DNA from: a virus
Reading direction: 5' to 3' (one strand)
DNA length: 64,000 bases
IMG/VR virus record: IMGVR_UViG_3300012663_001306
Span: 50,409-114,408 of that record
In this document: positions 36,808-51,678 of the stretch, piece by piece
Numbering within the stretch: position 1 is the first letter of the stretch
Layout of the letters: every line of letters begins with the position of its first letter
Program-made: the position numbers and the translations under genes
The notes under the pieces: model-generated
The model's input: the letters and a program-made list of their open reading frames with translations, nothing else
The model's database searches: none
What the model was told of the DNA's origin: nothing

Positions 36808-37134
36808 ATGATAACTATTACCGAAACCGCTAGAAACAAAATACTTAAATTGCTGGCAAAAAGAGGAAAAGGAGTAGGAATCCGTCTGGGTGTAAAAACT
36901 ACAGGATGCAGTGGGCTGGCATATACTTTAGAATATGTAGATGAATACACTATAGAAAACGGTATTACTAATTATGCACAACAGGATTTTGTAGTTTTAG
37001 TAGATGCAAAGTCTGATGCTTACTTAAAAGGCATGACAGTTGATTGGGCAAGAAACGGTCTTAATGAAGGATTTGAATTTAAGAATCCCAATGAGAGAGA
37101 TAAGTGCGGGTGTGGAGAATCTTTTAGAGTTTAA
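36808..37134 (+). CDS. iscA: A-type Fe-S carrier IscA (108 aa)
   Basis: MITITE...RGKGVGIRLGVKTTGCSGLAYTLEYVD...GLNEGFEFKNPNERDKCGCGESFRV. ATG 36808 lies 5 nt after TAAATA. Confidence 0.92.
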   Translation: MITITETARNKILKLLAKRGKGVGIRLGVKTTGCSGLAYTLEYVDEYTIENGITNYAQQDFVVLVDAKSDAYLKGMTVDWARNGLNEGFEFKNPNERDKCGCGESFRV

Positions 37135-37601
37135 TCAAATTCTTCTAAAGAAAATGTAATACTTGCCCGTGGACTATCCGGTATAGCACAATGTAATAAT
37201 CCTGGAAGGATATATAACATTTGATTTTCTTGTAATACAAATTTAGAATCTTCAACTTGCCATAACGTATCGCCTATTATTTGCCATACCCATAAATGTT
37301 GTCCAGGATCTTTATGTAAATCAAATGTTTTACTAGTTGGTGTTGTTCCTGCATATAGTCCTGCTCTAGCATAATAATTTGGTAACAATGGTTGTAGAAA
37401 ATCCAGTACATCTTTACAATACGGATCTTGATCTAATCCACCTAACGTAAATCCACCTTCTCCAAAATTTCTATAATACAGTTTGTTTATGCTTGTTTGA
37501 TGTTTGACCAAAGAATGTATTTTATCCCATGTCCATTTGTTAGAATCTAACGTGTGGTCTACAACTCCCCAACGGACATTGAAAGATGTAGTATCAATCA
37601 T
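37131..37601 (-). CDS. JmjC/cupin-type Fe(II)/2OG oxygenase-like protein (156 aa)
   Basis: FDLHKD (HxD)...WQIIGDTLWQV...LYILPGLLHCA...RASITF. ATGA overlap with the upstream gene. Confidence 0.75.
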   Translation of the reverse strand: MIDTTSFNVRWGVVDHTLDSNKWTWDKIHSLVKHQTSINKLYYRNFGEGGFTLGGLDQDPYCKDVLDFLQPLLPNYYARAGLYAGTTPTSKTFDLHKDPGQHLWVWQIIGDTLWQVEDSKFVLQENQMLYILPGLLHCAIPDSPRASITFSLEEFD

Positions 37602-38350
37602 AACTCTTCTTCAACTCGATCCCAAAATAATATTCTAGCTTTAATAGCTTCAACAGCAGTCTGCTCTGCTTCTACTATTTTAGTAGGGCTGTAATCGCAC
37701 AGTTCGTTAATTAAGTTCAGTGCGGCCGGCCCATGTTCTTCTCCGTCAACTTCTATATGCCTATCTAAATAATATAAAAATCTGTTAGCGTTCAATGAAT
37801 TAATATCAAGCTGATTTACGAGTCTTCTAAACATTTGCGGAATAACAGTTTCTCGGCCGTAAGTAAAGGCGGCGGCAATTTCATGTGCTTTGCCGCGTCT
37901 AATGATAGTAAAGGTAGAATTCATAAATTCTTTGCTAGGTGCAGGAATATATATGTTATCTAATGCCCAATCTAATCCGTTAGTTTCTACTGAGCTTAGG
38001 AAATTGGTTATAGGTGCAACATTTGCTCCAATTTCTAACATAGCCTGGCAGTAAAGATCAAAATGGGATAAGTGATTACCGTTAAACGGATCAACATCAC
38101 TTTCTTCTGCTAAAATAATTTCGTTGATCAACCTACTGGATGTACGCTGTATCCTAGTAGGAATCCAAAGGTCACCGCTTGGGCATATTCTATGTTGTAG
38201 TGCTTTAGCAAGACTCATAAAATCCCATACAGCATACACATGATGTTCCATGAATATCCGTAGATCTTCAATTGATTGAATTGTGTTGGTTACCAGTAAA
38301 GAATGATTCTCTAACAGTACCCTATGTTGTTCAATTATTGACTGGCGCAT
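37598..38350 (-). CDS. DUF3050-like protein (heme-oxygenase-like helical fold, probable diiron enzyme), 250 aa
   Basis: FMEHHVYAVWDFMSL, RLINEIILAEESD, SHFDLY, AAFTYGRETVIP, YYLDRHIEVDGEEHGP. Confidence 0.8.
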   Translation of the reverse strand: MRQSIIEQHRVLLENHSLLVTNTIQSIEDLRIFMEHHVYAVWDFMSLAKALQHRICPSGDLWIPTRIQRTSSRLINEIILAEESDVDPFNGNHLSHFDLYCQAMLEIGANVAPITNFLSSVETNGLDWALDNIYIPAPSKEFMNSTFTIIRRGKAHEIAAAFTYGRETVIPQMFRRLVNQLDINSLNANRFLYYLDRHIEVDGEEHGPAALNLINELCDYSPTKIVEAEQTAVEAIKARILFWDRVEEEL

Positions 38351-39659
38351 TTATAGATTCTATCCCCATTTCTAGCAACTCTACTTCTTGTCCAAATAAT
38401 AATTCAAAGGCTTTGTGCTGTATGGCGCCGTTCCATACTTTTTCTACTCTACAGTTTTGTAGGAACACGTTATCTGGGAATGTTATAGGACAACTAGACT
38501 TGCACAGTCTACGTACACTACAATCAGAACAATGAGTTTTCTTTCTGTTAAGATCTAATTGTATAATGCGGATGCCTTTTAAGTTATCAATTTTACCTGC
38601 AATAAATTTTTCGCTTGTATGCGGACACAGTCTTACATTTCCTTGGACATCAACTGATAGCACATCTTCGGCATCTGCTCCACACCCTGTTGTCATTGTT
38701 ACAGGTACTTGATGTTTAAGTGTGGCAGCATAGTCAAGAACTCCGCCCTTGCCATCAAATATATTTGTTTCTAAGAACTCTCGATTTTTATTTCTTCCGT
38801 GAGTCTTTAGTTGTTTAATGCACTCGTCAATATAGCTATTCATTGTATGTTTGAAGTTTGCTAGGTCTTCTCCAGATATAACATGATCAGCACTATTTTG
38901 TGAATTAGTCTCGTCATAAATTCTAGCCATTGTATAACTTAATTTGACATTTTTAAGATTGAGTTTTTCTGCAACATCTCTAAAATATTTGTTAATGCCA
39001 AACATATCATAGTTGGTTAAACTTATAACAGTATTAAAGCTAAACTGTACATGAGGATACATGGTGTCTAATCGTTGCAATGTTTTAGCCACACTAGACT
39101 TATCAAATATGTCTTCGCCACGTAAAGATTCTTGTCCAGGACCGTCGTGGCTTATTCCCATAGTAATTTTTGATTCTAGCGTCTCAAAAAAGTCAGCATG
39201 TTTATCTCTTAGTGGACTACCATTAGTAGATATATAGAAATGACGTCCTGCTTTATCTAAGTGTTTCATAACTGGCATTATGTCATTCCAATATAGGAAC
39301 GGTTCTCCGCCCCAAAGCTCTATGCGTTCTAAGTTTTCAAGGTCAAGATAAGTATCGATTGATTTAATAAATGCATCCAGATTGGTGTTCTTTTTTTGCT
39401 CTTCTGGATTACCAATGTCTTTCTGCATACAGTAAGAGCAACTATAGTTACAGGCCTGCCCAAACAAAATACGAATAGCTGTTGGCTTATTACTTTTCTT
39501 TCTAGAGCCATGCACTTTGCTAGCTTCTTCATAGAAAGAAATATCTTTCTCCGGAGGAAGCGTTAATGGTTCGCCTAGTTCGTTGTATATGGCATTATTA
39601 TTAATTTCATAATAGATAATGCTGTTTGATTGTTTTAATCTAAATTTGGAATAGCTCAT
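38331..39659 (-). CDS. Radical SAM protein with SPASM-type C-terminus (442 aa)
   Basis: CNYSCSYC, WGGEP, STNG, SHDG; C-terminal CGAD...DVQGNVRLCPH...CSDCSVRRLCKSSCP...C. Confidence 0.92.
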   Translation of the reverse strand: MSYSKFRLKQSNSIIYYEINNNAIYNELGEPLTLPPEKDISFYEEASKVHGSRKKSNKPTAIRILFGQACNYSCSYCMQKDIGNPEEQKKNTNLDAFIKSIDTYLDLENLERIELWGGEPFLYWNDIMPVMKHLDKAGRHFYISTNGSPLRDKHADFFETLESKITMGISHDGPGQESLRGEDIFDKSSVAKTLQRLDTMYPHVQFSFNTVISLTNYDMFGINKYFRDVAEKLNLKNVKLSYTMARIYDETNSQNSADHVISGEDLANFKHTMNSYIDECIKQLKTHGRNKNREFLETNIFDGKGGVLDYAATLKHQVPVTMTTGCGADAEDVLSVDVQGNVRLCPHTSEKFIAGKIDNLKGIRIIQLDLNRKKTHCSDCSVRRLCKSSCPITFPDNVFLQNCRVEKVWNGAIQHKAFELLFGQEVELLEMGIESINAPVNN

Positions 39660-40714
39660 ATTTTACTTATTATTGGTATAACCTGGTCTGTTTTTAACAT
39701 TCCAAATTTTGTCATTGTCCACCCTAGCTCTTGAAGTTTATAAAAAAATCTCGACTTGTTAGTATACATGTAGTATGGTATAAAAGTAAAGTTTTTATTA
39801 ACGGTGTATTCTAAGGTTGTTTTGTAGTATTCTCTAAACTTTGGATTGATAACTCTATTTTTCCAACTATCGTAATGGTATTGTTTGCTCGTAAGCATAT
39901 CAGTCATAAAGCTAGAATGATCAAACCCGTTAGTAATTAAATGAAACGGATCAATAGTTAAATTACTAGCATCGTCGCTTGAAAAATAAAATCTATCGTT
40001 ATATAGATGTATAGACTCCCTATAAATTTGCATCAATCCGCTATTGTCGTTTACAACCCACGTATTTTGATATTCGGCATAGTCTTGTTCTAATATTTCT
40101 CTGTTGTTTGTTCTAAAATCGTGATGCACACAATTATGTAATCTATGCTTTTTAGTAAATTCAATTAACTCTTTGAAGATAGTAGGATTACCGCAGTCTA
40201 TATATTTGATTTTTTGTATTCCGTACTTATCGTATAGTTTACCTAATGTATCAAGTACTTTATCAACACCCACTTGTTCTAAAAATTCTGTGCTTATAGA
40301 GATATCGCCCAGGGTTTTTATCTTAATATCTAAGTCAAGTATTCGGAAGATTGCGTTATCAGTAATACATACTTCAAACAGGTGTCCGTGGGTTTGATAC
40401 CATTTGTAGTGGTTAGGAAAATTATATTTTAGATAATACAAGTCATCATTTGTCCTAACAGATCCAAAGTAATCAAATATTTCAAACCACGTAGATTGCA
40501 AACTAAAATCATCTGTAAAAATTTCATTTACTAAATCTTTAGTTTTAGCCAAATTGTCTTTTATGTAACATACTTTACAACCTGCGCCACAATAGTATCT
40601 TTTACCTAAACTAAAATACAAGTCGTGATCAAGAGAACGAAGGCAATCTTCCTTAATCCAATAGTCAGCTAAACTATCGTAGCCGTCAAAATTATCTCTG
40701 TTTGTATTTTGCAT
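39656..40714 (-). CDS. Atypical radical SAM-like protein (~352 aa)
   Basis: CGAGCKVCY (CxxxCxxC) near the N-terminus, but no GGEP motif and no SPASM cysteines. Start likely ATG 40714, 6 nt after TAAATA (40721-40726). Confidence 0.65.
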   Translation of the reverse strand: MQNTNRDNFDGYDSLADYWIKEDCLRSLDHDLYFSLGKRYYCGAGCKVCYIKDNLAKTKDLVNEIFTDDFSLQSTWFEIFDYFGSVRTNDDLYYLKYNFPNHYKWYQTHGHLFEVCITDNAIFRILDLDIKIKTLGDISISTEFLEQVGVDKVLDTLGKLYDKYGIQKIKYIDCGNPTIFKELIEFTKKHRLHNCVHHDFRTNNREILEQDYAEYQNTWVVNDNSGLMQIYRESIHLYNDRFYFSSDDASNLTIDPFHLITNGFDHSSFMTDMLTSKQYHYDSWKNRVINPKFREYYKTTLEYTVNKNFTFIPYYMYTNKSRFFYKLQELGWTMTKFGMLKTDQVIPIISKI

Positions 40715-40729
40715 AATCAATATTTACAA

Positions 40730-41848
40730 TTAAGAAATAATCTTAAAGTCTTCTTGGATTCCTACCCATTCTAAGATATTTTGTTTTTGATTTAGCTTTG
40801 ATACATGCATTATAACAAAGTCCATATATGTATAAAACTCCTTGCATTTTGTACCTGGCTGTTCGTTGAACATATGATACAAATACTTTAATCCGCAACT
40901 AGGACGCTTTTTACAGTTCATACAACTATCGTATATTCTTCCAGCATCGCCTTGATTTTTCCAAATTTGCTTGTTTCGCCAATCACCTATACGAGCATCA
41001 ACAGTTTTGTATTCTAGAAAATCGAACTCGGGATAAATGAATCCATCTGGTGAGAGTATTAATTTGTTATGCTCTGAAAAGTATGCTTTATCAACCATAG
41101 TATAACATCCGTCAATATATACAGATATCTTTTTAACATAGAGTATCTGAATAAATTGCAAAAAGGCATCTAAAAATTGTACTAAATCTAACTTATCAAT
41201 TATAACGTCAAACTTATCTTTACCTCTTCGATGCCTTAACGGAATAATATTAATAGATCGGCATCTAGTTTTATAACAGGTACTAACAATATCTTTTATG
41301 TTGTCTAATGAAAAAGAGTTTGGTTGATCAATGGGTAACACGCATTGCCATTGCCACTTAATTTTATTTCTATTAAGTACTGTTGACATTTCTACAACAT
41401 CAAACGATTTTCTATTAGTAGCTTGATGCATAAAATCGTAACTGACTGTTACATATAATACATCTGCGTATTGATCAAAGAAGTCTTCAGTCTCTTTAAC
41501 TAATGAGCCGTTTGTAGTTACAGTCAATTGCCAGTTGTTCTTTTTTAAGATAGGATATAACCATAACATTATTTCCTTCATTCGAGTTATAAAGAGCAAA
41601 GGCTCGCCGCCGTGAAATGATACACGTTCTACTTCATTTGGTTGAAGGGCAACCCATTCTATAAACTCTTTGATATCTTGAGAAGTATCTCGAGTTAAGT
41701 TTTGCCCTCCTAGATTTGTAATATAGTCTCTATCGCAATATGTACAATCAAAATTACATGTGTTACCTAAGTAGATAACAACCATCTTTATTTTATCTAG
41801 TGGTTGAATGGGTATGAGATTTATTTTTTGATTCAATAAGTCGTTCAC
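40730..41848 (-). CDS. Radical SAM protein with reduced SPASM/Twitch-like tail (372 aa)
   Basis: CNFDCTYC, FHGGEPL, TTNG; C-terminal CMNCKKRPSCG...C. Confidence 0.9.
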   Translation of the reverse strand: MNDLLNQKINLIPIQPLDKIKMVVIYLGNTCNFDCTYCDRDYITNLGGQNLTRDTSQDIKEFIEWVALQPNEVERVSFHGGEPLLFITRMKEIMLWLYPILKKNNWQLTVTTNGSLVKETEDFFDQYADVLYVTVSYDFMHQATNRKSFDVVEMSTVLNRNKIKWQWQCVLPIDQPNSFSLDNIKDIVSTCYKTRCRSINIIPLRHRRGKDKFDVIIDKLDLVQFLDAFLQFIQILYVKKISVYIDGCYTMVDKAYFSEHNKLILSPDGFIYPEFDFLEYKTVDARIGDWRNKQIWKNQGDAGRIYDSCMNCKKRPSCGLKYLYHMFNEQPGTKCKEFYTYMDFVIMHVSKLNQKQNILEWVGIQEDFKIIS

Positions 41849-43553
41849 TAAATGTACCTTGATAAGTTTTATGCATGGATTGTAAAAATATCATATGCAG
41901 TAGGCAAAGATAGAATGCACGTTGATACAAGTTTTCAGCTTTTATCTTATTATCAATTGGAGCAAGATTTCCTTTTTTAACAACATAATAGTAAAAGTCA
42001 TCAACTTCTTCTGTATCGCTAGTAATCAGAGCTTTGAGTTCTTCTACAAAATTATCCTTGCTGAAGTTAGGAGTAATCTCATCATTGATAATCTTTTTCC
42101 ATACGGCAAGCAATGTTCTATAATCTGCAATCTCGTCCATATTAACATGAACTTTATCTATTAGCGGATGGAAATTAAATGTGTAGTAGAACATCAAATA
42201 TACCAAACCTTTAACATAGGGATGATTCTCTTCGCTAGATTCTACTGCGCTACAAATGCTTTCGTATTTTTTCTTAAATTGTTTTTTAGCAATATCTTCC
42301 TGCAAGTCTAGATATAGCTTCACAATCTTTTGGCACATGTCGTCTGGGCGAAACATTCTAGATCCGGTATCTAAGTTTCCAGCAGGGCATTGATAACATG
42401 CGTTCTTCAAATCACATGTTTTGCATTGTTCCTCTTCTTCAAACATTTTAGAATATTCTACTTGGAAGTACTTGTACCTGTCTATATAAAGATTATCTTG
42501 GAATAGATTACCTAGTATAGTTTCCGAAGTTGCGCCAGCCTTTTGGTTAGTAAAGAAGTAGCATCCGCTCCAGTCTCCGCTTGCATCGATGGCAATCATG
42601 TCAGATCCTATCATGCAGTTTTCTTCACCTTTCTGTCCAACACCTTCTGAAAAATGTATTTGGAAATCTGCATATTTGTCTAACACTGCTAAAATATCTC
42701 TATGTAGGTTATTCCATTCGCTATCGGACCAGCGGATGAAGCCTTTGCTAGAGTCCAGGATCAGCGGATGTACTACCATCCTTCTAATGCCCCTAGTATA
42801 CAAATGATCAACGAACTCTGTAAAATACGGAGCATTTTCTCTTGCTAGAGTGCATCTAATAATAATACGCTTTTGTTGCTTAGGACCATCGGGCATATAA
42901 CTAATGAAGTCCATAATTTTATTAATCTTGTCTTGCCCAATTTCTCTATGATCAACTTCGCTTCTATCTGTATCAAGCGATAATAAGATATACGTGAAAT
43001 CATAGTTTAGAAATTCGTCTAATAATTCTTTAGTAAACAATAACCCGTTAGTAACCATACCAACAACAGTGTTAACATCACCACGGCTATTTTCTTCTAG
43101 CTCTTTTTCATTTTTTCTTACAAAGTCTAAGATAATATCTTTATGAATTAACGGCTCTCCGCCAAAGAAATTAAAGACTTTCTTTTGTCTTTGATTTGCG
43201 TTAACTAAGAATCTATATGCTTGAAGTAAACTTTCGTTAGTAAATCTTCCAAAATCTTTATTATGCTGTTCGTAGCAGTATGAGCAGGATAGATTGCAAG
43301 CGTTGGTTAAAATTAAATTTAGTTGCTTAAGGTCTTGGAACAAATAGTTAGCTGATGAAATAGATACAACTGTTTCATCTACTTTAGGTACTACTGAAAT
43401 TAGTTTATTTGCTTTTTCTAATCCTTTGGGTGTAATAATATTCTTAGTTTCAAATCGTAGCGAACCGTCTTCAGATGTAGTCACCGAAGCCTTATGATCT
43501 TCCAATCTTTTCTTTTGAGTTTCGTTCTTAATCCAAATTACACTATTGGTCAT
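41793..43553 (-). CDS. Radical SAM/SPASM protein, putative peptide/protein maturase (586 aa)
   Basis: CNLSCSYC, FFGGEPL, VTNG, LSLD; SPASM CMIGSD...DASGDWSGCYFF...CKTCDLKNACYQCPAG...C; extra helical C-terminal domain. ATGA overlap with the Cys-rich small gene. Confidence 0.92.
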   Translation of the reverse strand: MTNSVIWIKNETQKKRLEDHKASVTTSEDGSLRFETKNIITPKGLEKANKLISVVPKVDETVVSISSANYLFQDLKQLNLILTNACNLSCSYCYEQHNKDFGRFTNESLLQAYRFLVNANQRQKKVFNFFGGEPLIHKDIILDFVRKNEKELEENSRGDVNTVVGMVTNGLLFTKELLDEFLNYDFTYILLSLDTDRSEVDHREIGQDKINKIMDFISYMPDGPKQQKRIIIRCTLARENAPYFTEFVDHLYTRGIRRMVVHPLILDSSKGFIRWSDSEWNNLHRDILAVLDKYADFQIHFSEGVGQKGEENCMIGSDMIAIDASGDWSGCYFFTNQKAGATSETILGNLFQDNLYIDRYKYFQVEYSKMFEEEEQCKTCDLKNACYQCPAGNLDTGSRMFRPDDMCQKIVKLYLDLQEDIAKKQFKKKYESICSAVESSEENHPYVKGLVYLMFYYTFNFHPLIDKVHVNMDEIADYRTLLAVWKKIINDEITPNFSKDNFVEELKALITSDTEEVDDFYYYVVKKGNLAPIDNKIKAENLYQRAFYLCLLHMIFLQSMHKTYQGTFSERLIESKNKSHTHSTTR

Positions 43554-43765
43554 ACAGTTCCACGGTTACAGTTACATTGACATTGACAGTCACATACTGT
43601 GGTATAATCATCATAAAATATATGATTATGCGTGGCAAGGTTGTTCAAAATTGTTAACATAGTTTGATAATTTTGTTGACCAATGATGGTTGTATTTGCA
43701 ACAGCATCAGCCGGTGGTTGGACACCATCGGCCCAGTCGTTTACGTTTTCAGTATTTTCTGCCAT
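43550..43765 (-). CDS. Small Cys-rich protein (71 aa), candidate radical-SAM substrate or precursor
   Basis: Ends in TVCDCQCQCNCNRGTV. AAGGAG SD upstream. Stop overlaps the start of the rSAM/SPASM gene. Contains an HxH module. Confidence 0.75.
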   Translation of the reverse strand: MAENTENVNDWADGVQPPADAVANTTIIGQQNYQTMLTILNNLATHNHIFYDDYTTVCDCQCQCNCNRGTV

Positions 43766-43776
43766 ATATTTGCTCC

Positions 43777-44703
43777 TTAAATTTTATGTACTACATATTC
43801 TCTGTAGAATCTATTGGTCTTATTTAATGCTACATCCATTGCTGTAGCAGTGTTCCATCTTAGATATAGATAACCAACAGAATTATCAACTGTTATTTCA
43901 AACTGATTGTTATTTCTAGTAACTGGAAAGTTTGTAGTACATTTGACTTTGGCGTTGTCAAATAAATCAGTATCAGATAAATGCAGTCTTATAAACCAAT
44001 TATCAAAGTTTGAAACTGTAAACTTGTCTCCAGTTACTAACAATTGATTTCCTACTATTTTTACATTTTTAGAAAATCTAGGCTGAAATAATGTTTCGTT
44101 AAGATTATTACCATGATTGTCTATAGAATGTACAAAGGTGTTATCGTCTATTCGTCCACTTAGATTTGCAGATTCTTGTATGGCATAATGATTTAATACA
44201 ATGTAATAGATGTCTGCATCATTAGTTTTATAAACTAAAAACCAGGGAATGACATCAAAATTTTCAGATATAGTTTCATTGTTTCGATGATCTAACATTA
44301 ATCCGTTATCTAGTCTACTAAAATATCGAGTACCTTCTATAGCACTTTTTTGATCTGTTGCGTCAGCTAACGGAGCTCCAAATAATAAAATCTTACACTG
44401 AGGACGCCTGTCCTTAATTTTTTCGTATTCATCTACTATATCTTGTAAATTGATAGATATAGATGGTAACAGATCGGCTGTGGTATAAGGCCTAGTTAAA
44501 CATATATCAGATTCAACTCCTGCCGACAGCACAAATCTAGTATCTACGTTTCTAAAAAAAGATATTCTTGCAGTTCGGTATGCATCGGTATTCAGACTAG
44601 AAAAGTACCCTAGGCCTGGTTCTGGATTTAGATTATATGTGCTCTCCGCGTCATCCCACATACTTGAAAATCCTTGCCCGGTTTGGAAAAAAAATGCTCT
44701 CAA
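43777..44703 (-). CDS. Hypothetical protein (308 aa, TTG start) within the rSAM operon
   Basis: Long ORF tightly packed between neighbours; AAGGA upstream of the TTG; no family recognised. Confidence 0.7.
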   Translation of the reverse strand: MRAFFFQTGQGFSSMWDDAESTYNLNPEPGLGYFSSLNTDAYRTARISFFRNVDTRFVLSAGVESDICLTRPYTTADLLPSISINLQDIVDEYEKIKDRRPQCKILLFGAPLADATDQKSAIEGTRYFSRLDNGLMLDHRNNETISENFDVIPWFLVYKTNDADIYYIVLNHYAIQESANLSGRIDDNTFVHSIDNHGNNLNETLFQPRFSKNVKIVGNQLLVTGDKFTVSNFDNWFIRLHLSDTDLFDNAKVKCTTNFPVTRNNNQFEITVDNSVGYLYLRWNTATAMDVALNKTNRFYREYVVHKI

Positions 44704-44712
44704 TTTGTTTCC

Positions 44713-45168
44713 TTACGCCGATGTTCGATCAACGATACCGTGTCTATGATATCTTAGAGTTTTAATCCTAGTGTTCATTGCATTGTAGTCGCTTGCTCTA
44801 ATAACTCCAGCTTGCTTAAAATCACCACCGGTCGCTGGGCCTGCGCCGGTGAGTGTATCGCCGGTTTGAACTCCGTATGCGTAACCTGTATTTCTGCCAC
44901 CAGGAGTATAGTAATTATTTCGGTCTCCTGCACTTGGGTTATCACCGTACCCTGCACCATATGTAGCTAATTGATATGCATCGGTATATTGGTGGTAGTG
45001 CCCAGCCATTGAAGTAATTAGACCTTTTATAGCATTTATATCTGAATAATAAATTACTTTACCGGCACCTACGTTCCCCTGTAAGGTAGGAATTTGAGAT
45101 TGGTATGCAAGATTTCCTAAAGGATGAATTATGCTATACGCGGCACGGGGTACTTGTCCTGTTGGCAT
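44713..45168 (-). CDS. Gly/Tyr-rich protein with two internal coiled-coil+HxH modules (151 aa)
   Basis: VIYYSDINAIKGLITSMAGHYHQYTD and VIRASDYNAMNTRIKTLRYHRHGIVD. GGAG SD upstream. Confidence 0.75.
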   Translation of the reverse strand: MPTGQVPRAAYSIIHPLGNLAYQSQIPTLQGNVGAGKVIYYSDINAIKGLITSMAGHYHQYTDAYQLATYGAGYGDNPSAGDRNNYYTPGGRNTGYAYGVQTGDTLTGAGPATGGDFKQAGVIRASDYNAMNTRIKTLRYHRHGIVDRTSA

Positions 45169-45169
45169 T

Positions 45170-45619
45170 TTAGTTCTCCACTATAAGTGTTTCAGTATAT
45201 ACTGTACTGGTACTAATTGACGGTGATAATACATAAACTACCTCTCCGTCAACATCAAAATTGTCAAATAATAAATTTACAACATTTTCATCGTAAAATG
45301 ATTGTATTTCAGCTACATCAGTAGACTGAAGTATGTGTCCAAAATTAGTTAATAAGGAATCTTTTACTGATTGATCAATTGCGGTGTCTGCTAGAAAATC
45401 TGGAAAGATAATTTTGAGATCTGGGGATATAATTCTAATATTACTAGGAACATCGTCATTGCCCGTGAATCCTAAATGTTCTACTAAATCTTTTATTTCG
45501 TCTGTAATAACTTTAACAATTCGTTGACCTTCTACCGGAGTATCAGTAATGTTAACCAACGGAAATTCTTTACGCTTCATAGCGTATTCTAAAAAAATTA
45601 ATCTTGGATCTATACTCAT
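45170..45619 (-). CDS. Acidic hypothetical protein (~149 aa), probable first gene of the rSAM operon
   Basis: Likely start MSIDPRL at ATG 45619, with AAAGGTG and TAAATA (45641-45646) upstream. Confidence 0.65.
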   Translation of the reverse strand: MSIDPRLIFLEYAMKRKEFPLVNITDTPVEGQRIVKVITDEIKDLVEHLGFTGNDDVPSNIRIISPDLKIIFPDFLADTAIDQSVKDSLLTNFGHILQSTDVAEIQSFYDENVVNLLFDNFDVDGEVVYVLSPSISTSTVYTETLIVEN

Positions 45620-45669
45620 AGTAATTAGCACCTTTAATCATATTTAGCATGACTAAAGCTAAGGACAAA

Positions 45670-46262: not shown

Positions 46263-46865
46263 TCAATTATAAAAAATATGACGACCAATATGGGCCACTG
46301 GTTTCTTACCCCATCCTGGGTTGATGTAATCCCCGTGAAAATACAGGGCATCTTTTAGGCTAGGAAGCCTAAAACCTTCTAGCAAAACTTTCTTTGCTAC
46401 TTCTTCACTTTCCTTAAAACGAGCACCGTTTACGGGTTTCACTGATGGCGCAGATTGACAAACCCAACTAAACTGGCAAACTACTTTACTGTAGATTATG
46501 CTCTTTTGATAGATAACTTGACAGATGTCATCAGGAAATGCTGATGATTTAGCTCTATTCATTGTTACTTGAGCCACTGCAACTTTACCCTCAAACGGTT
46601 CACCACCTGCTTCGTAGTATATGTTCCTGCTTAGACATGCCAACTGCTTTTCTCTCATAGCGGCTGTAATCTCTGTTGTGGGCCCACTAACTTCACTCGA
46701 AGCAAGTTCTCTTTTGTCCATAGCCCAATCGAGCAAACTGACTGCAAGCCAGATGCTAATTGATGCGAGGATTAACGTACAAACTGTTCCGAGGAATCGG
46801 GCAATTTGAATATTGGCTTGACGAGGATCGAGAACTTCCTCTACCAATGTGTTCGTAGTAGTCAT
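46263..46865 (-). CDS. Cell-wall hydrolase, SleB/Hydrolase_2 family, with N-terminal TM segment (200 aa)
   Basis: CLSRNIYYEAGGE..GKVAVAQVTMNR...ICQVIYQ...QFSW...ALYFH...IGRHIFY. Strong SD AAAGGAGG. Confidence 0.9.
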   Translation of the reverse strand: MTTTNTLVEEVLDPRQANIQIARFLGTVCTLILASISIWLAVSLLDWAMDKRELASSEVSGPTTEITAAMREKQLACLSRNIYYEAGGEPFEGKVAVAQVTMNRAKSSAFPDDICQVIYQKSIIYSKVVCQFSWVCQSAPSVKPVNGARFKESEEVAKKVLLEGFRLPSLKDALYFHGDYINPGWGKKPVAHIGRHIFYN

Positions 46866-48747: not shown

Positions 48748-51678
48748 TTAAGCCTGAGCTTCTGTCCAGGCTATACGAGCATTAACCGAGTTAATTGTAA
48801 CTGGTGTAACGTTTTGGGCACACATAGTTACAATATCGGGACCGTCTGGGTACTTATTTTGAGCACCCGATGGAACTGTATAACTAGTACCGCCACCTAA
48901 AATACTATTACCTAGATCGCGCACTGTAGTTAAGTCAAAGGATGAAACTCCCGGAGTAGTGGTAAAGAAGCCAAATATTGTTTCGCCTCCAGTAATTGTC
49001 TGTCCTGCTGTATGGTAAGCAATTTGAGAAAGACTAGATCCGCCAGCTGCCGCAAATGTTCCGCCTGATAAATTGCCATTAAGTCGCAAAGTAATCAAGA
49101 AAGACACGTTAGTACCAGTTGAATATACACCAGCTTGTTGCAACTTCAACTGCATGGTGTTAAGAATTTCACGTTGGCCAACGATACCAGTTAATCCAGA
49201 ATCTACACTAGGTGCGACTCGAATACTAATTAAAGGTTGTACAACGTTGGTAGCCAAGGTAGCAATAGTTGCTGTCATACCCGCTACGAAAATTAACGAT
49301 TTATCATCATCATATCGACCATCCATAATAACCGATGATCCCCAATGACTGATAGTATTGGCAGATTGAGGACCCCACCATGATACCCCAACTGGTGCAG
49401 ATCCTAATGGTAATGTAGCAGTAACGTTGGCTAAGTTAAATGCCGTGGCGGCTGCTCCACCACCACCAGTTAATCCGCCCGGTCCTATTAAATTTTGGAC
49501 GCCACGAGTTAATCCGGTAAATGATGTGTCTGTTTTACCTGTATAGTTTACATATTCAATGGCTGCGCCGGTGTTTCCGCTGGCCATGATAGTTATTGTT
49601 CCTGTGCTTGCAAAACCGACAGTACTATCTACAGATATTGAGGTAGCACCTGTTGTAATATTGGCAGTTACGTTTGCAGTTGGGTAGAATGTATTAACTT
49701 CGTATCTAGCAGGAAGGTTACCAGAACGCATATAAGCTTCTGTTTGATTATTAGCATGAGCTAATCTATGGCAATATATTACTTCACCACGGGCATTCTT
49801 AAAGCCCCAACGAATTGCTCCAGCACCGTACCAACTATAATCTATGTACCACATTTGCATCTTGCTAACATCTACATTAAATCCAGAAGCTCCAGTTCCG
49901 TCACATCTATCAATATTCCATTGACTCTGTGGGATCACAAGATCAATAGTTTTACTAATAGTCACTTGACTAGGAGAAGAAATAGTTGTACCTTTATAAT
50001 CTGGATAAATGGTCATTGCCGTGTTGCTTTGTATACTTAATACTTTATGAGACATTCCTCTAATAACAACAAGATCGCCGACACGCAACTGTTGTGCCCA
50101 AGAAGTATTTGTACCTGTACAAACCTGAGTTCCATTAGTTAAGGCTGTTAGGTAACCTTGCAACTGAGTGGTACTAGATCTACGAACCGCACTTAATGTA
50201 GTACCGTCATAGTTAAAGAAGAATCCGTTTTGAGATGTGAACATTCCCATTCGTATGCTAGCGCCAGTCCATTGATAAGGCTGTACAGTTATTCCATTAA
50301 GAGAAGTTGCAGGACTAGCTTGAGGATTATCTGTTGCGGTATATGTAAATGTCAAATCAGACGCAACAGTTTGTACAACAAAAGTACCGTTGTAAAATGA
50401 TTGGTCTGAGCCAAAAACTATAATAGTAGCGCCAGTTCCCATATTGTGTGGGAATTTTGTAGTTACTGTTACAACTCTTCCAGATGCTGTTAAACTATCA
50501 ATCTGAAAGGGAGAACACAAATTCGAACCAGTGGAGAATTGAACTCCTTTACCTGATTGGTATCGGAAAAATCGACGAGTCTGTCGAATTATTTGATTCC
50601 CTTGGTAAGGGTAACCATCAGTAAAAGTTACGCCGCCGTCGTATGCTCTGTGAATACTGGTTCCCCATGTTCTAGCATATAATGTAGCTTGAGCTCCGGC
50701 GGTAGCAGTAATTGTCCCCGATGGCGTATTAATTACATCAAATATAAACGTGTTACTGGTAGGAGTTTGACGAACTTGCCAAGTACCGTTTGGAGCATTA
50801 GTACCTGTTGTTCCCACTACAAATATAGCCTGGCCAACTGAAAGTCCGTGGTGATTTGTTGTTGTGCAGGTTACTGCTGTTCCTACGTTGGTAAAGGCTG
50901 CACCAGCTGATGCAGAAAGTGGTATACCCGCTTGAGTATAGAATGAACCAATAAAAATGTAAGTTTTAGTTGGATCAAAAATATTAGATGTTGTCACAGC
51001 AGATCTAGAAACGTATGTAAAGTTAGCATTAGTTGACACGGTTGCAGGTAAGTACCAACCGTTAGCAGAAGGGTCGATAGTATCCTGGACAAAAATAGGA
51101 GTACTTGTTGTAATATTTGTTGTATTATTAATTGTAACTGTTATTACTCGACCTGCATTCCCGGTCATTGCGGTAATCTGATAAGAACCAATTGCACTAC
51201 CAATAGTAAGAACAGTTGCTACGTTACTAATACCTTGTGTTGGGTCATAGAAAGCAGCCGGTCTATTATTAACAAGTGCCAATGTTTCCCACTTGGTACT
51301 TTGAACACCATATTCAAAGTCAGTATCAATTAACGACTGGGGATTGCTTACACGCAATTTTCCCACAGGATCTTGTAATACTTCTGATGGGCGAAATAAT
51401 TCTTCAATTTCGTCTACAATGATACTTAACTTGTCGCTAGCGTTCATACCACTACAGTTATACGCTAATATGATTGTAGTTGTTTCAATGTTACTTGCAA
51501 CACTTGTGGTGTATGTACCAGCAGTTAAAGACGAATCGGCAAAATTATAGATAATAGTGTTAGTTGTTACGTTAGTAATAAGAACTAACTGTTCTCTTCT
51601 AATTGCTTTACCAGTTATCACCACAGTATTACTACCGGGTGTAAAGGTATATCTTTCTAAAATTACGTGTTTTGCCAT
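48748..51678 (-). CDS. Large virion structural protein (976 aa)
   Basis: DPVGKLRVSNPQSLIDTDFEYG, QTRRFFRYQSGKG, IDYSWYGAGAIRWG; repeated VTxTT..H..GxxIxV.G...NGT..V beta modules; Thr/Gly-rich. Confidence 0.7.
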   Translation of the reverse strand: MAKHVILERYTFTPGSNTVVITGKAIRREQLVLITNVTTNTIIYNFADSSLTAGTYTTSVASNIETTTIILAYNCSGMNASDKLSIIVDEIEELFRPSEVLQDPVGKLRVSNPQSLIDTDFEYGVQSTKWETLALVNNRPAAFYDPTQGISNVATVLTIGSAIGSYQITAMTGNAGRVITVTINNTTNITTSTPIFVQDTIDPSANGWYLPATVSTNANFTYVSRSAVTTSNIFDPTKTYIFIGSFYTQAGIPLSASAGAAFTNVGTAVTCTTTNHHGLSVGQAIFVVGTTGTNAPNGTWQVRQTPTSNTFIFDVINTPSGTITATAGAQATLYARTWGTSIHRAYDGGVTFTDGYPYQGNQIIRQTRRFFRYQSGKGVQFSTGSNLCSPFQIDSLTASGRVVTVTTKFPHNMGTGATIIVFGSDQSFYNGTFVVQTVASDLTFTYTATDNPQASPATSLNGITVQPYQWTGASIRMGMFTSQNGFFFNYDGTTLSAVRRSSTTQLQGYLTALTNGTQVCTGTNTSWAQQLRVGDLVVIRGMSHKVLSIQSNTAMTIYPDYKGTTISSPSQVTISKTIDLVIPQSQWNIDRCDGTGASGFNVDVSKMQMWYIDYSWYGAGAIRWGFKNARGEVIYCHRLAHANNQTEAYMRSGNLPARYEVNTFYPTANVTANITTGATSISVDSTVGFASTGTITIMASGNTGAAIEYVNYTGKTDTSFTGLTRGVQNLIGPGGLTGGGGAAATAFNLANVTATLPLGSAPVGVSWWGPQSANTISHWGSSVIMDGRYDDDKSLIFVAGMTATIATLATNVVQPLISIRVAPSVDSGLTGIVGQREILNTMQLKLQQAGVYSTGTNVSFLITLRLNGNLSGGTFAAAGGSSLSQIAYHTAGQTITGGETIFGFFTTTPGVSSFDLTTVRDLGNSILGGGTSYTVPSGAQNKYPDGPDIVTMCAQNVTPVTINSVNARIAWTEAQA

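Follow-up and report, generated by a model that had tools for sequence, protein, structure and literature searches.

Within a 64,000-nucleotide stretch of viral DNA (positions 50,409 to 114,408 of the IMG/VR virus record IMGVR_UViG_3300012663_001306, hereafter the window), a run of abutting minus-strand genes encodes two small proteins that share a helical module ending in the motif HxHxxxD. The first, p151 (151 residues, 44713-45168), carries the module twice; the second, p71 (71 residues, 43550-43765), carries it once, ahead of a tail of alternating cysteines, and is followed by a gene for a radical S-adenosylmethionine (rSAM) enzyme with a SPASM domain. We propose that the module is an assembly element and not primarily a leader sequence, and that p151 and p71 would form a 1:1, metal-clamped pseudo-trimer presenting an rSAM-modified Cys tail, a reading which taken as a whole we hold to be probable, if by no means secure. 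In this heterodimer p151 would contribute two modules and p71 one; the three module helices would pack as a pseudo-threefold bundle and the three HxH pairs would meet at one end of it, probably gripping a metal ion as in the homotrimeric fibres and spikes of phages. The Cys tail of p71 would jut from the unit, where it would likely be acted upon by the coupled rSAM/SPASM enzyme together with three paralogues of the latter, the most probable chemistry being thioether links from Cys to neighboring Asp, Glu, Gln, or Asn, and the mature product would remain a protein subunit rather than be released as a peptide.

The first-pass annotation of the window had pointed to three 25-residue segments, one in p71 and two in p151, that align without gaps, and all three are present in minus-strand open reading frames (ORFs) exactly where it had placed them. 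Their raw pairwise identity amounts to 5-8 of 25 residues, so that the single sequences prove little and the case for a repeat has to be made from the protein families, for which the homologues, as proteins clustered at 90%, numbered 33 for p71 and seven for p151, with more obtained from viral contigs. Family profiles confirm that the module is a repeat, but one longer than the 25 residues originally claimed: it opens with a conserved G-x-x-I-x-A, spans about 33 residues, and has its hydrophobic positions spaced 3-4-3. When whole families were compared with hhalign, residues 20-53 of p71 matched residues 110-148 of p151 (probability 85%, E = 5.8e-6). Profiles of the modules alone gave E values of 3e-12 for module 1 against module 2, and of 5e-10 and 7e-10 for each of these against the p71 module, over 32-33 gapless columns; the first His served as anchor for these alignments, a choice that somewhat favors a match. 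A hidden Markov model (HMM) built from the modules of the p151 family alone retrieved 49 p71-like ORFs among 16,015 ORFs, with a best E value of 6e-7 and a median of 3e-3. At the family level, by these profile comparisons, the module is a true repeat.

In the window, module 1 covers residues 33-67 of p151 (44968-45072, minus strand; H57, H59, and D63; 51 bits with a combined module HMM) and module 2 covers residues 120-150 (44719-44811, minus strand; H141, H143, and D147; 41 bits), while module 3 covers residues 22-56 of p71 (43598-43702, minus strand; H46, H48, and D52; 44 bits). The layout of p151 runs from an N-terminal strand and helix through module 1, a β-hairpin segment with the conserved sequences DAYQLATYG and GDRNNYY, and a Gly-rich loop to module 2, and the chain ends four residues past D147; that of p71 consists of a variable N-terminus, module 3, an invariant DDYTTVC, and the alternating-Cys tail. 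The HxHxxxD motif is invariant in every copy of the three modules, namely in 34 of 34 sequences for p71 and, for both copies of p151, in 32 of 32. Apart from the two His and the one Asp, no position is invariant throughout the module copies, a pattern that reads as the signature of a putative metal site and not as that of a peptide for docking.

The number of modules is as constant as their motif. With the combined HMM, three modules of at least 15 bits, split as two in the p151-like protein and one in the p71-like protein, were found in almost all of the complete loci; in the few exceptions a divergent copy scores low, and in one locus the p151-like gene is split in two. The same HMM found no further copy within the 64-kb window, its giant fibre-like proteins included. 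Relatives in which the division between chains is different were obtained by exhaustive profile search, where a search based on words had returned no longer relatives for p71. In P0067, a single chain of 230 residues, the Cys tail comes after three modules; P0097 and P0109 also have three modules in a single chain, and the tail is combined with two modules in P0050, P0060, P0076, P0106, P0110, and P0094. Wherever the whole set is visible, the modules add up to three, whichever way they are shared out between chains. No match was obtained when viral contigs were scanned with P0076 and P0067, and searches of the GenBank phages and the PLSDB plasmids did not find P0094; this last protein (EHM1384083.1) lies on a 246-kb, jumbo-sized contig of a Salmonella enterica assembly.

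This constancy bears upon a simpler view, according to which each protein self-assembles: p71 might, for example, be a homotrimer holding a six-His site of its own and p151 might form an oligomer apart from it, in which case the module would reflect common descent only. Homotrimers are indeed the rule for the HxH sites of phage fibres. Separate oligomers nevertheless leave the constant total of three unexplained, given that the two-plus-one arrangement is found nearly everywhere and that the three-in-one chains have the same total, and the heterodimer model described below scores well against its controls; we consider this view very unlikely.

Co-occurrence of the module with rSAM clusters, which the first-pass annotation had put forward for testing, was found in the form of a conserved gene cassette. 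A pattern scan with the p71 alignment recovered 44 distinct IMG/VR loci, and every one of the 44 has the same set of four rSAM-type genes after p71, usually with a DUF3050 gene as the last; the gene corresponding to the 586-residue rSAM/SPASM enzyme of the window (rS586) comes after p71 in each of them, either directly or past the gene for a 308-residue protein, p308, which is almost always present. Upstream of these genes the 44 loci have a p151-like gene with two HxH motifs, except that one locus begins inside this gene and shows its last module only. Outside IMG/VR the cassette was found in one JGI metagenome contig, in one contig of a metagenome-assembled genome (MAG), and in the Ralstonia jumbo phages RP12 and RP31, phiKZ-related viruses that are the only cultured phages carrying it. 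These phages were reached via the rSAM and p71 queries only, for blastn and tblastn searches of GenBank phages with the region and with p151 gave no match. In RP12 and RP31, ORF074 is p151-like, ORF075 is p308-like, and ORF076-080 are the enzymes; their p71 homologue, of 65 residues, lies between ORF074 and ORF075 without annotation in the GenBank records (for RP12, L046:12889-13086, corresponding to about 82888-83085 of NC_041911) and has the HxH module followed by a tail of alternating Cys and Asn. Among 185,579 species genomes there was one matching contig, labelled as a Bdellovibrio MAG, with identical gene order, and the metagenome scan returned standard two-plus-one loci only. The Cys-tailed protein itself is represented by 74 cluster representatives among 1.84 billion proteins in the exhaustive profile search. 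The cassette is essentially confined to phages.

In structural terms, these observations raise a question: Could one chain with two modules and one chain with a single module fold together into a unit with threefold character? A model of the 1:1 heterodimer with iron, such as the first-pass annotation had suggested, passed its controls: the interface score ipSAE (interaction prediction score from aligned errors) was 0.77, with individual runs at 0.72, 0.80, and 0.77, versus 0.21 for the best control. At least 87% of the contacts were common to the runs and the predicted local distance difference test (pLDDT) of the partner was at least 70. The lowest-error contacts in the predicted interface place H59 and H143 of p151 each against H48 of p71, while positions 47, 50, and 51 and positions 135 and 138 in the helices of p151 would contact residues 36-43 of p71, and the N-terminus of each chain would pair with the strand that follows the HxH of the other. 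Residues 60-71 of p71 lie outside the confident contacts, and thus its Cys tail is probably free. The Fe ion was present in the model and was not scored. A search of the PDB by sequence returned no match for the p151 profile and only chance-level matches for the p71 profile (E = 0.15 or weaker), so that the success of the model is unlikely to derive from recall of a similar solved complex.

The proposal of a pseudo-trimer built from one 151-residue and one 71-residue chain, as originally advanced, is therewith supported in part, namely by the three-module count, the single-chain proteins with three modules, the invariant six His and three Asp, and the 1:1 model. HxH metal sites are present in the needle of T4 gp37, which holds seven Fe ions, in gp12, and at the apex of P2 gpV and phi92 gp138. 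What the phage module would have in common with these fibre and spike sites is an HxH pair supplied three times round a threefold or pseudo-threefold axis, the invariance of the His residues, and the occurrence in phages, often at a fibre locus; that three HxH pairs come together is indicated, by prediction and comparison, by the module count, the three-in-one chains, and the model contacts among H59, H143, and H48. Yet the known sites belong to homotrimeric, β-structured needles and β-helices, whereas here the modules are spread over two genes, as two plus one over two chains instead of a homotrimer of one chain, and the HxH pair comes after an α-helix and before an invariant Asp. Searches of the PDB with profiles and fold searches with Foldseek and VIA-align gave no clear sign of a sequence or fold relation to gp37, gp12, or gpV. 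In the tip of gp37, as reported, iron is bound octahedrally by HxH pairs that three chains contribute (PMC11705849).

The second half of the proposal concerns the tail of p71 and the enzymes encoded after it. The tail (residues 58-71; 43553-43594, minus strand) contains five Cys alternating with Asp, Gln, or Asn, followed by N-R-G-T-V. The p71 gene has an AAGGAG Shine-Dalgarno site and its stop codon overlaps the start of rS586 as ATGA, the two genes being thus translationally coupled; rS586 (586 residues; 41793-43553, minus strand) matches the Pfam Radical_SAM family at 1e-18 and has a SPASM domain. Nearly all relatives of p71 have four to six alternating Cys, with three in one divergent tail; the intervening residues are D, E, Q, N, or A, and the R-G is constant. 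Among NCBIfam families, rS586 is nearest to two whose members form thioethers, the ranthipeptide maturase PapB (NF047865, 2e-36; 126 bits, where the cut-off is 340) and the SCIFF maturase (TIGR03974, 3e-22; 79 bits, where it is 425). It is very probable that p71 is an rSAM substrate, and thioether cross-links of its Cys are the putative modification.

Since p71 very probably is such a substrate, assembly and leader functions can both be partly true. In its strong form, the leader idea, which was the alternative offered by the first-pass annotation, makes of the module a recognition sequence read by the rSAM enzymes and of p71 and p151 independent substrates resembling peptides synthesized ribosomally and modified post-translationally (RiPPs), the Tyr/Gly segment of p151 being a second core. 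An rSAM/SPASM gene indeed abuts p71 in every locus, directly or with p308 alone between, and rS586 resembles maturases that depend upon a leader; moreover, the segments right after modules 1 and 3 are the best-conserved parts of p151 and p71, with the common pattern HxHx(F/Y)xDxY. Against this, module 2 closes p151 with no core behind it, residues of the type that ligate metals are invariant in all three copies, and the modules of a locus almost always number three, the full set being fused in one chain in some relatives. The presumed second core fares no better: the linker of p151 is absent in P0067 and in RP12-type relatives, some p151-like proteins have a Gly-rich domain (PF21722) inserted between modules 1 and 2, and the linker Tyr at position 70 is a Phe in several homologues, while G71 is invariant. 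No protease or exporter to complete such a pathway was found, as detailed below. A leader role, together with the notion of the linker as a second substrate, is consequently poorly supported as the main function, the linker being neither universal nor Tyr-specific; we regard it as quite unlikely, and the pseudo-trimer, on the strength of conservation and modelling, as better supported. The reading of the linker as a substrate of a splicease (XYG) was also considered and rejected, for with either Tyr or Phe at position 70 the Tyr-Gly is not invariant.

Two p151-like ORFs with unusual additions may be mentioned in this context. At L045:7119-8516 there is one of 387 residues with a Gly_rich_2 domain between modules 1 and 2; in this locus the p151-like and p71-like ORFs are in one frame, parted only by closely spaced stops, and P0094 aligns across the junction. 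At L030:8527-9894 the p151-like protein has a C-terminal extension of 320 residues with a weak Hint/homing-endonuclease-associated match (PF05203, 9e-7, below the gathering score).

A rather different division of labor can be imagined in which p151 is a chaperone or scaffold, with a role like that of a RiPP recognition element, that presents the Cys tail of p71 to the rSAM enzymes, the product being a released peptide or a peptide-derived cofactor. The predicted interface between p151 and p71 would fit this equally well, and the set of four rSAM enzymes, DUF3050, and a cupin resembles a biosynthetic pathway; nor are proteins of the cassette listed among those of the RP31 virion. Yet the cassette genes that were scanned with Pfam, PHROG, and NCBIfam revealed no family of peptidases or proteases, exporters, or ABC transporters, and no cleavage motif was seen. 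A substrate fused to its own chaperone, as P0067 would then be, is unusual, and P0077 (NCBI/Logan, 256 residues) is p71-like but has its alternating-Cys motif in the interior, with a Pro-rich linker behind it and then a domain, some 180 residues long, belonging to no known family, an architecture ill-suited to a released peptide. From the combination of this protein with the lack of a protease or exporter in the scan, it would follow that the product stays part of a protein. The cassette also sits among fibre genes in many phages, and altogether a chaperone with a released product seems unlikely to us.

The association with fibre genes is what would connect the p151:p71 unit with the virion. 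A common C-terminal motif of the fibre type is found, in RP12 and in about ten distinct loci, at the end of the gene that precedes the p151-like gene or of one close upstream of it, and the RP12 copies of this gene are annotated as virion structural (YomR-like); other loci have a fibre-like gene plus a gene similar to that of the 153-residue protein (p153) of the window ahead of p151. The Gly-rich domain of some p151-like proteins and the Ig-like C-terminal domain of p308 also speak for a place in the virion. Given its restriction to phages and its frequent position next to genes for tail fibres, the cassette may encode a virion part that is associated with the fibres, although the virion location is the weakest step of the whole reading. 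In its most extended form, the proposal would be that of a metal-clamped hetero-pseudotrimer, its tail cross-linked by the phage rSAM enzymes, that is mounted on the tail-fibre apparatus, with RiPP-type chemistry acting upon a virion protein and possibly producing an iron-bearing or robust tip for receptor contact. This we advance tentatively, as a possibility with the chances against it.

The evidence for the p151:p71 pseudo-trimer needs to be qualified by a number of points that weigh against it. To begin with the repeat, the p71 of the window is the weakest of the 49 p71-like ORFs, at E = 7.4 with the HMM of p151 modules, and for this reason the significance of the repeat rests on the families. 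The complex score expresses the model's own confidence; in the calibration of the tool, 58 of 80 solved complexes and two of 110 mismatched pairs attained this mark, counts that are only rough here in view of our own family alignments and the riding Fe ligand, and the stoichiometry modelled was 1:1 alone. The AlphaFold2 (AF2) model of p151 by itself (pLDDT 75; helices 19-32, 41-55, and 125-139) gave no clear match in fold searches of the PDB with Foldseek and VIA-align; TssK and IglD recurred at Z of 4.1-5.3, the best hits being at 5.1-5.3, which is within noise, and no claim is made for them. Every named maturase family has a curated cut-off that all four rSAM enzymes miss by a wide margin. 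Lastly, p151 is not directly after a fibre gene in the window, and mass spectrometry of the phiRP31 virion, which reported 32 proteins from limited gel bands, lists no cassette protein; the latter is weak evidence, since small proteins are poorly sampled and the number of gel bands analysed was limited.

How does the cassette compare with bacterial systems in which Cys-rich peptides are matured by rSAM/SPASM enzymes? Like the ranthipeptide and SCIFF systems (PapA-PapB for freyrasin; CteA-CteB), it combines a short Cys-rich precursor with an adjacent rSAM/SPASM maturase, the Cys being near Asp, Glu, and Asn; the scores of the curated maturase families, reported above for rS586, fall short of their cut-offs. 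It differs from those systems in having four rSAM paralogues instead of one, in lacking a detectable protease or exporter, and in being phage-encoded, with a core that is nearly invariant across distant phages and a p71 front that is a repeat of its partner's module. The nearest precedent is QhpC/QhpD of quinohemoprotein amine dehydrogenase, where an rSAM/SPASM enzyme introduces Cys-Asp/Glu thioethers into a small subunit that stays in a hetero-oligomer; here, in contrast, there is no QhpD equivalog (65.5 bits with TIGR03906 versus a cut-off of 453), dehydrogenase, quinone cofactor context, or protease of the QhpE type.

To our knowledge, HxH metal sites have been known only from homotrimeric fibres and spikes, and rSAM/SPASM maturation of Cys-containing peptides only as bacterial biosynthesis of peptides or cofactors; our literature searches found no published description of an arrangement such as this, in which the two would meet in one strongly conserved, phage-confined cassette. 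If the proposal is true, a natural threefold metal site would have been rebuilt from two unequal chains, phage-encoded radical chemistry would act on a phage protein, and ideas on iron carried by phage tails would gain a concrete object. The proposal is directly testable, with the Ralstonia phages RP12 and RP31 in culture and with p71 and p151 being small and easily expressed.

The genomic setting is that of a large virus: the 114-kb record containing the window is 32% complete by CheckV, and the window is crowded with very large structural ORFs of more than 5179 (open-ended), 2780, 2114, 1131, and 976 residues, the last with matches to PHROG virion structural families. On the minus strand the gene run comprises, in order, the 153-residue protein, p151, p308, p71, the rSAM/SPASM enzyme of 586 residues, an rSAM enzyme of 372 residues, an atypical protein of 354 residues, an rSAM/SPASM enzyme of 442 residues, DUF3050, and a small JmjC-like cupin. 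No family match in Pfam, PHROGs, or NCBIfam was found for p71, p151, p308, or p153. The constant third non-enzyme member of the cassette is p308 (43777-44703, minus strand), assigned by synteny between p151 and p71; its true start is likely at 44661, giving 294 residues. Its AF2 model has a pLDDT of 84 and shows in residues 185-294 an Ig/filamin-like sandwich that is generic in fold searches (Z about 6). It shares a common fold with ORF075 of RP12 at 13% identity (template modelling score TM 0.68, E = 9e-13), and the ESM Atlas had no match for it.

The enzymes downstream of rS586 keep their positions in the cassette. The 372-residue rSAM enzyme (40730-41848, minus strand) matches Pfam Radical_SAM at 4e-12; the atypical rSAM-like protein of 354 residues (39656-40720, minus strand) matches phrog_36229 at 8e-28 and retains the motif Cx3Cx2C; and the 442-residue enzyme (38331-39659, minus strand) matches Radical_SAM at 4e-11 and the SPASM family TIGR04085 with 28.9 bits (cut-off 27). 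DUF3050, a heme-oxygenase-like protein (37598-38350, minus strand; PF11251, 5e-83), is present in most loci and usually closes the cassette; its counterpart in RP12, ORF80, has been annotated as MgoB (PMC5468394). At the end of the operon in the window, after DUF3050, there is a 156-residue protein (37131-37601, minus strand) that matches JmjC_2 weakly and below the cut-off (9e-4), homologues of which occur in a few related loci only.

At the other end, p153 (45170-45631, minus strand) is directly upstream of p151 and has homologues by phmmer in loci L036 and L037, while its position is taken in L002 and L009 by ORFs of 155-167 residues. In L010:5439-8960 and L036:6086-8868, four to five genes are inserted between the p151-like and p308-like genes, the first of which starts like a β-ketoacyl-ACP synthase and the last of which resembles a hotdog dehydratase, as judged by eye. 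Further upstream of the cassette, the window encodes a SleB-type cell-wall hydrolase of 200 residues (46263-46865, minus strand; PF07486, 5e-24) with a hydrophobic N-terminal segment, a homologue of which is found at the equivalent relative position in L036 and L037.

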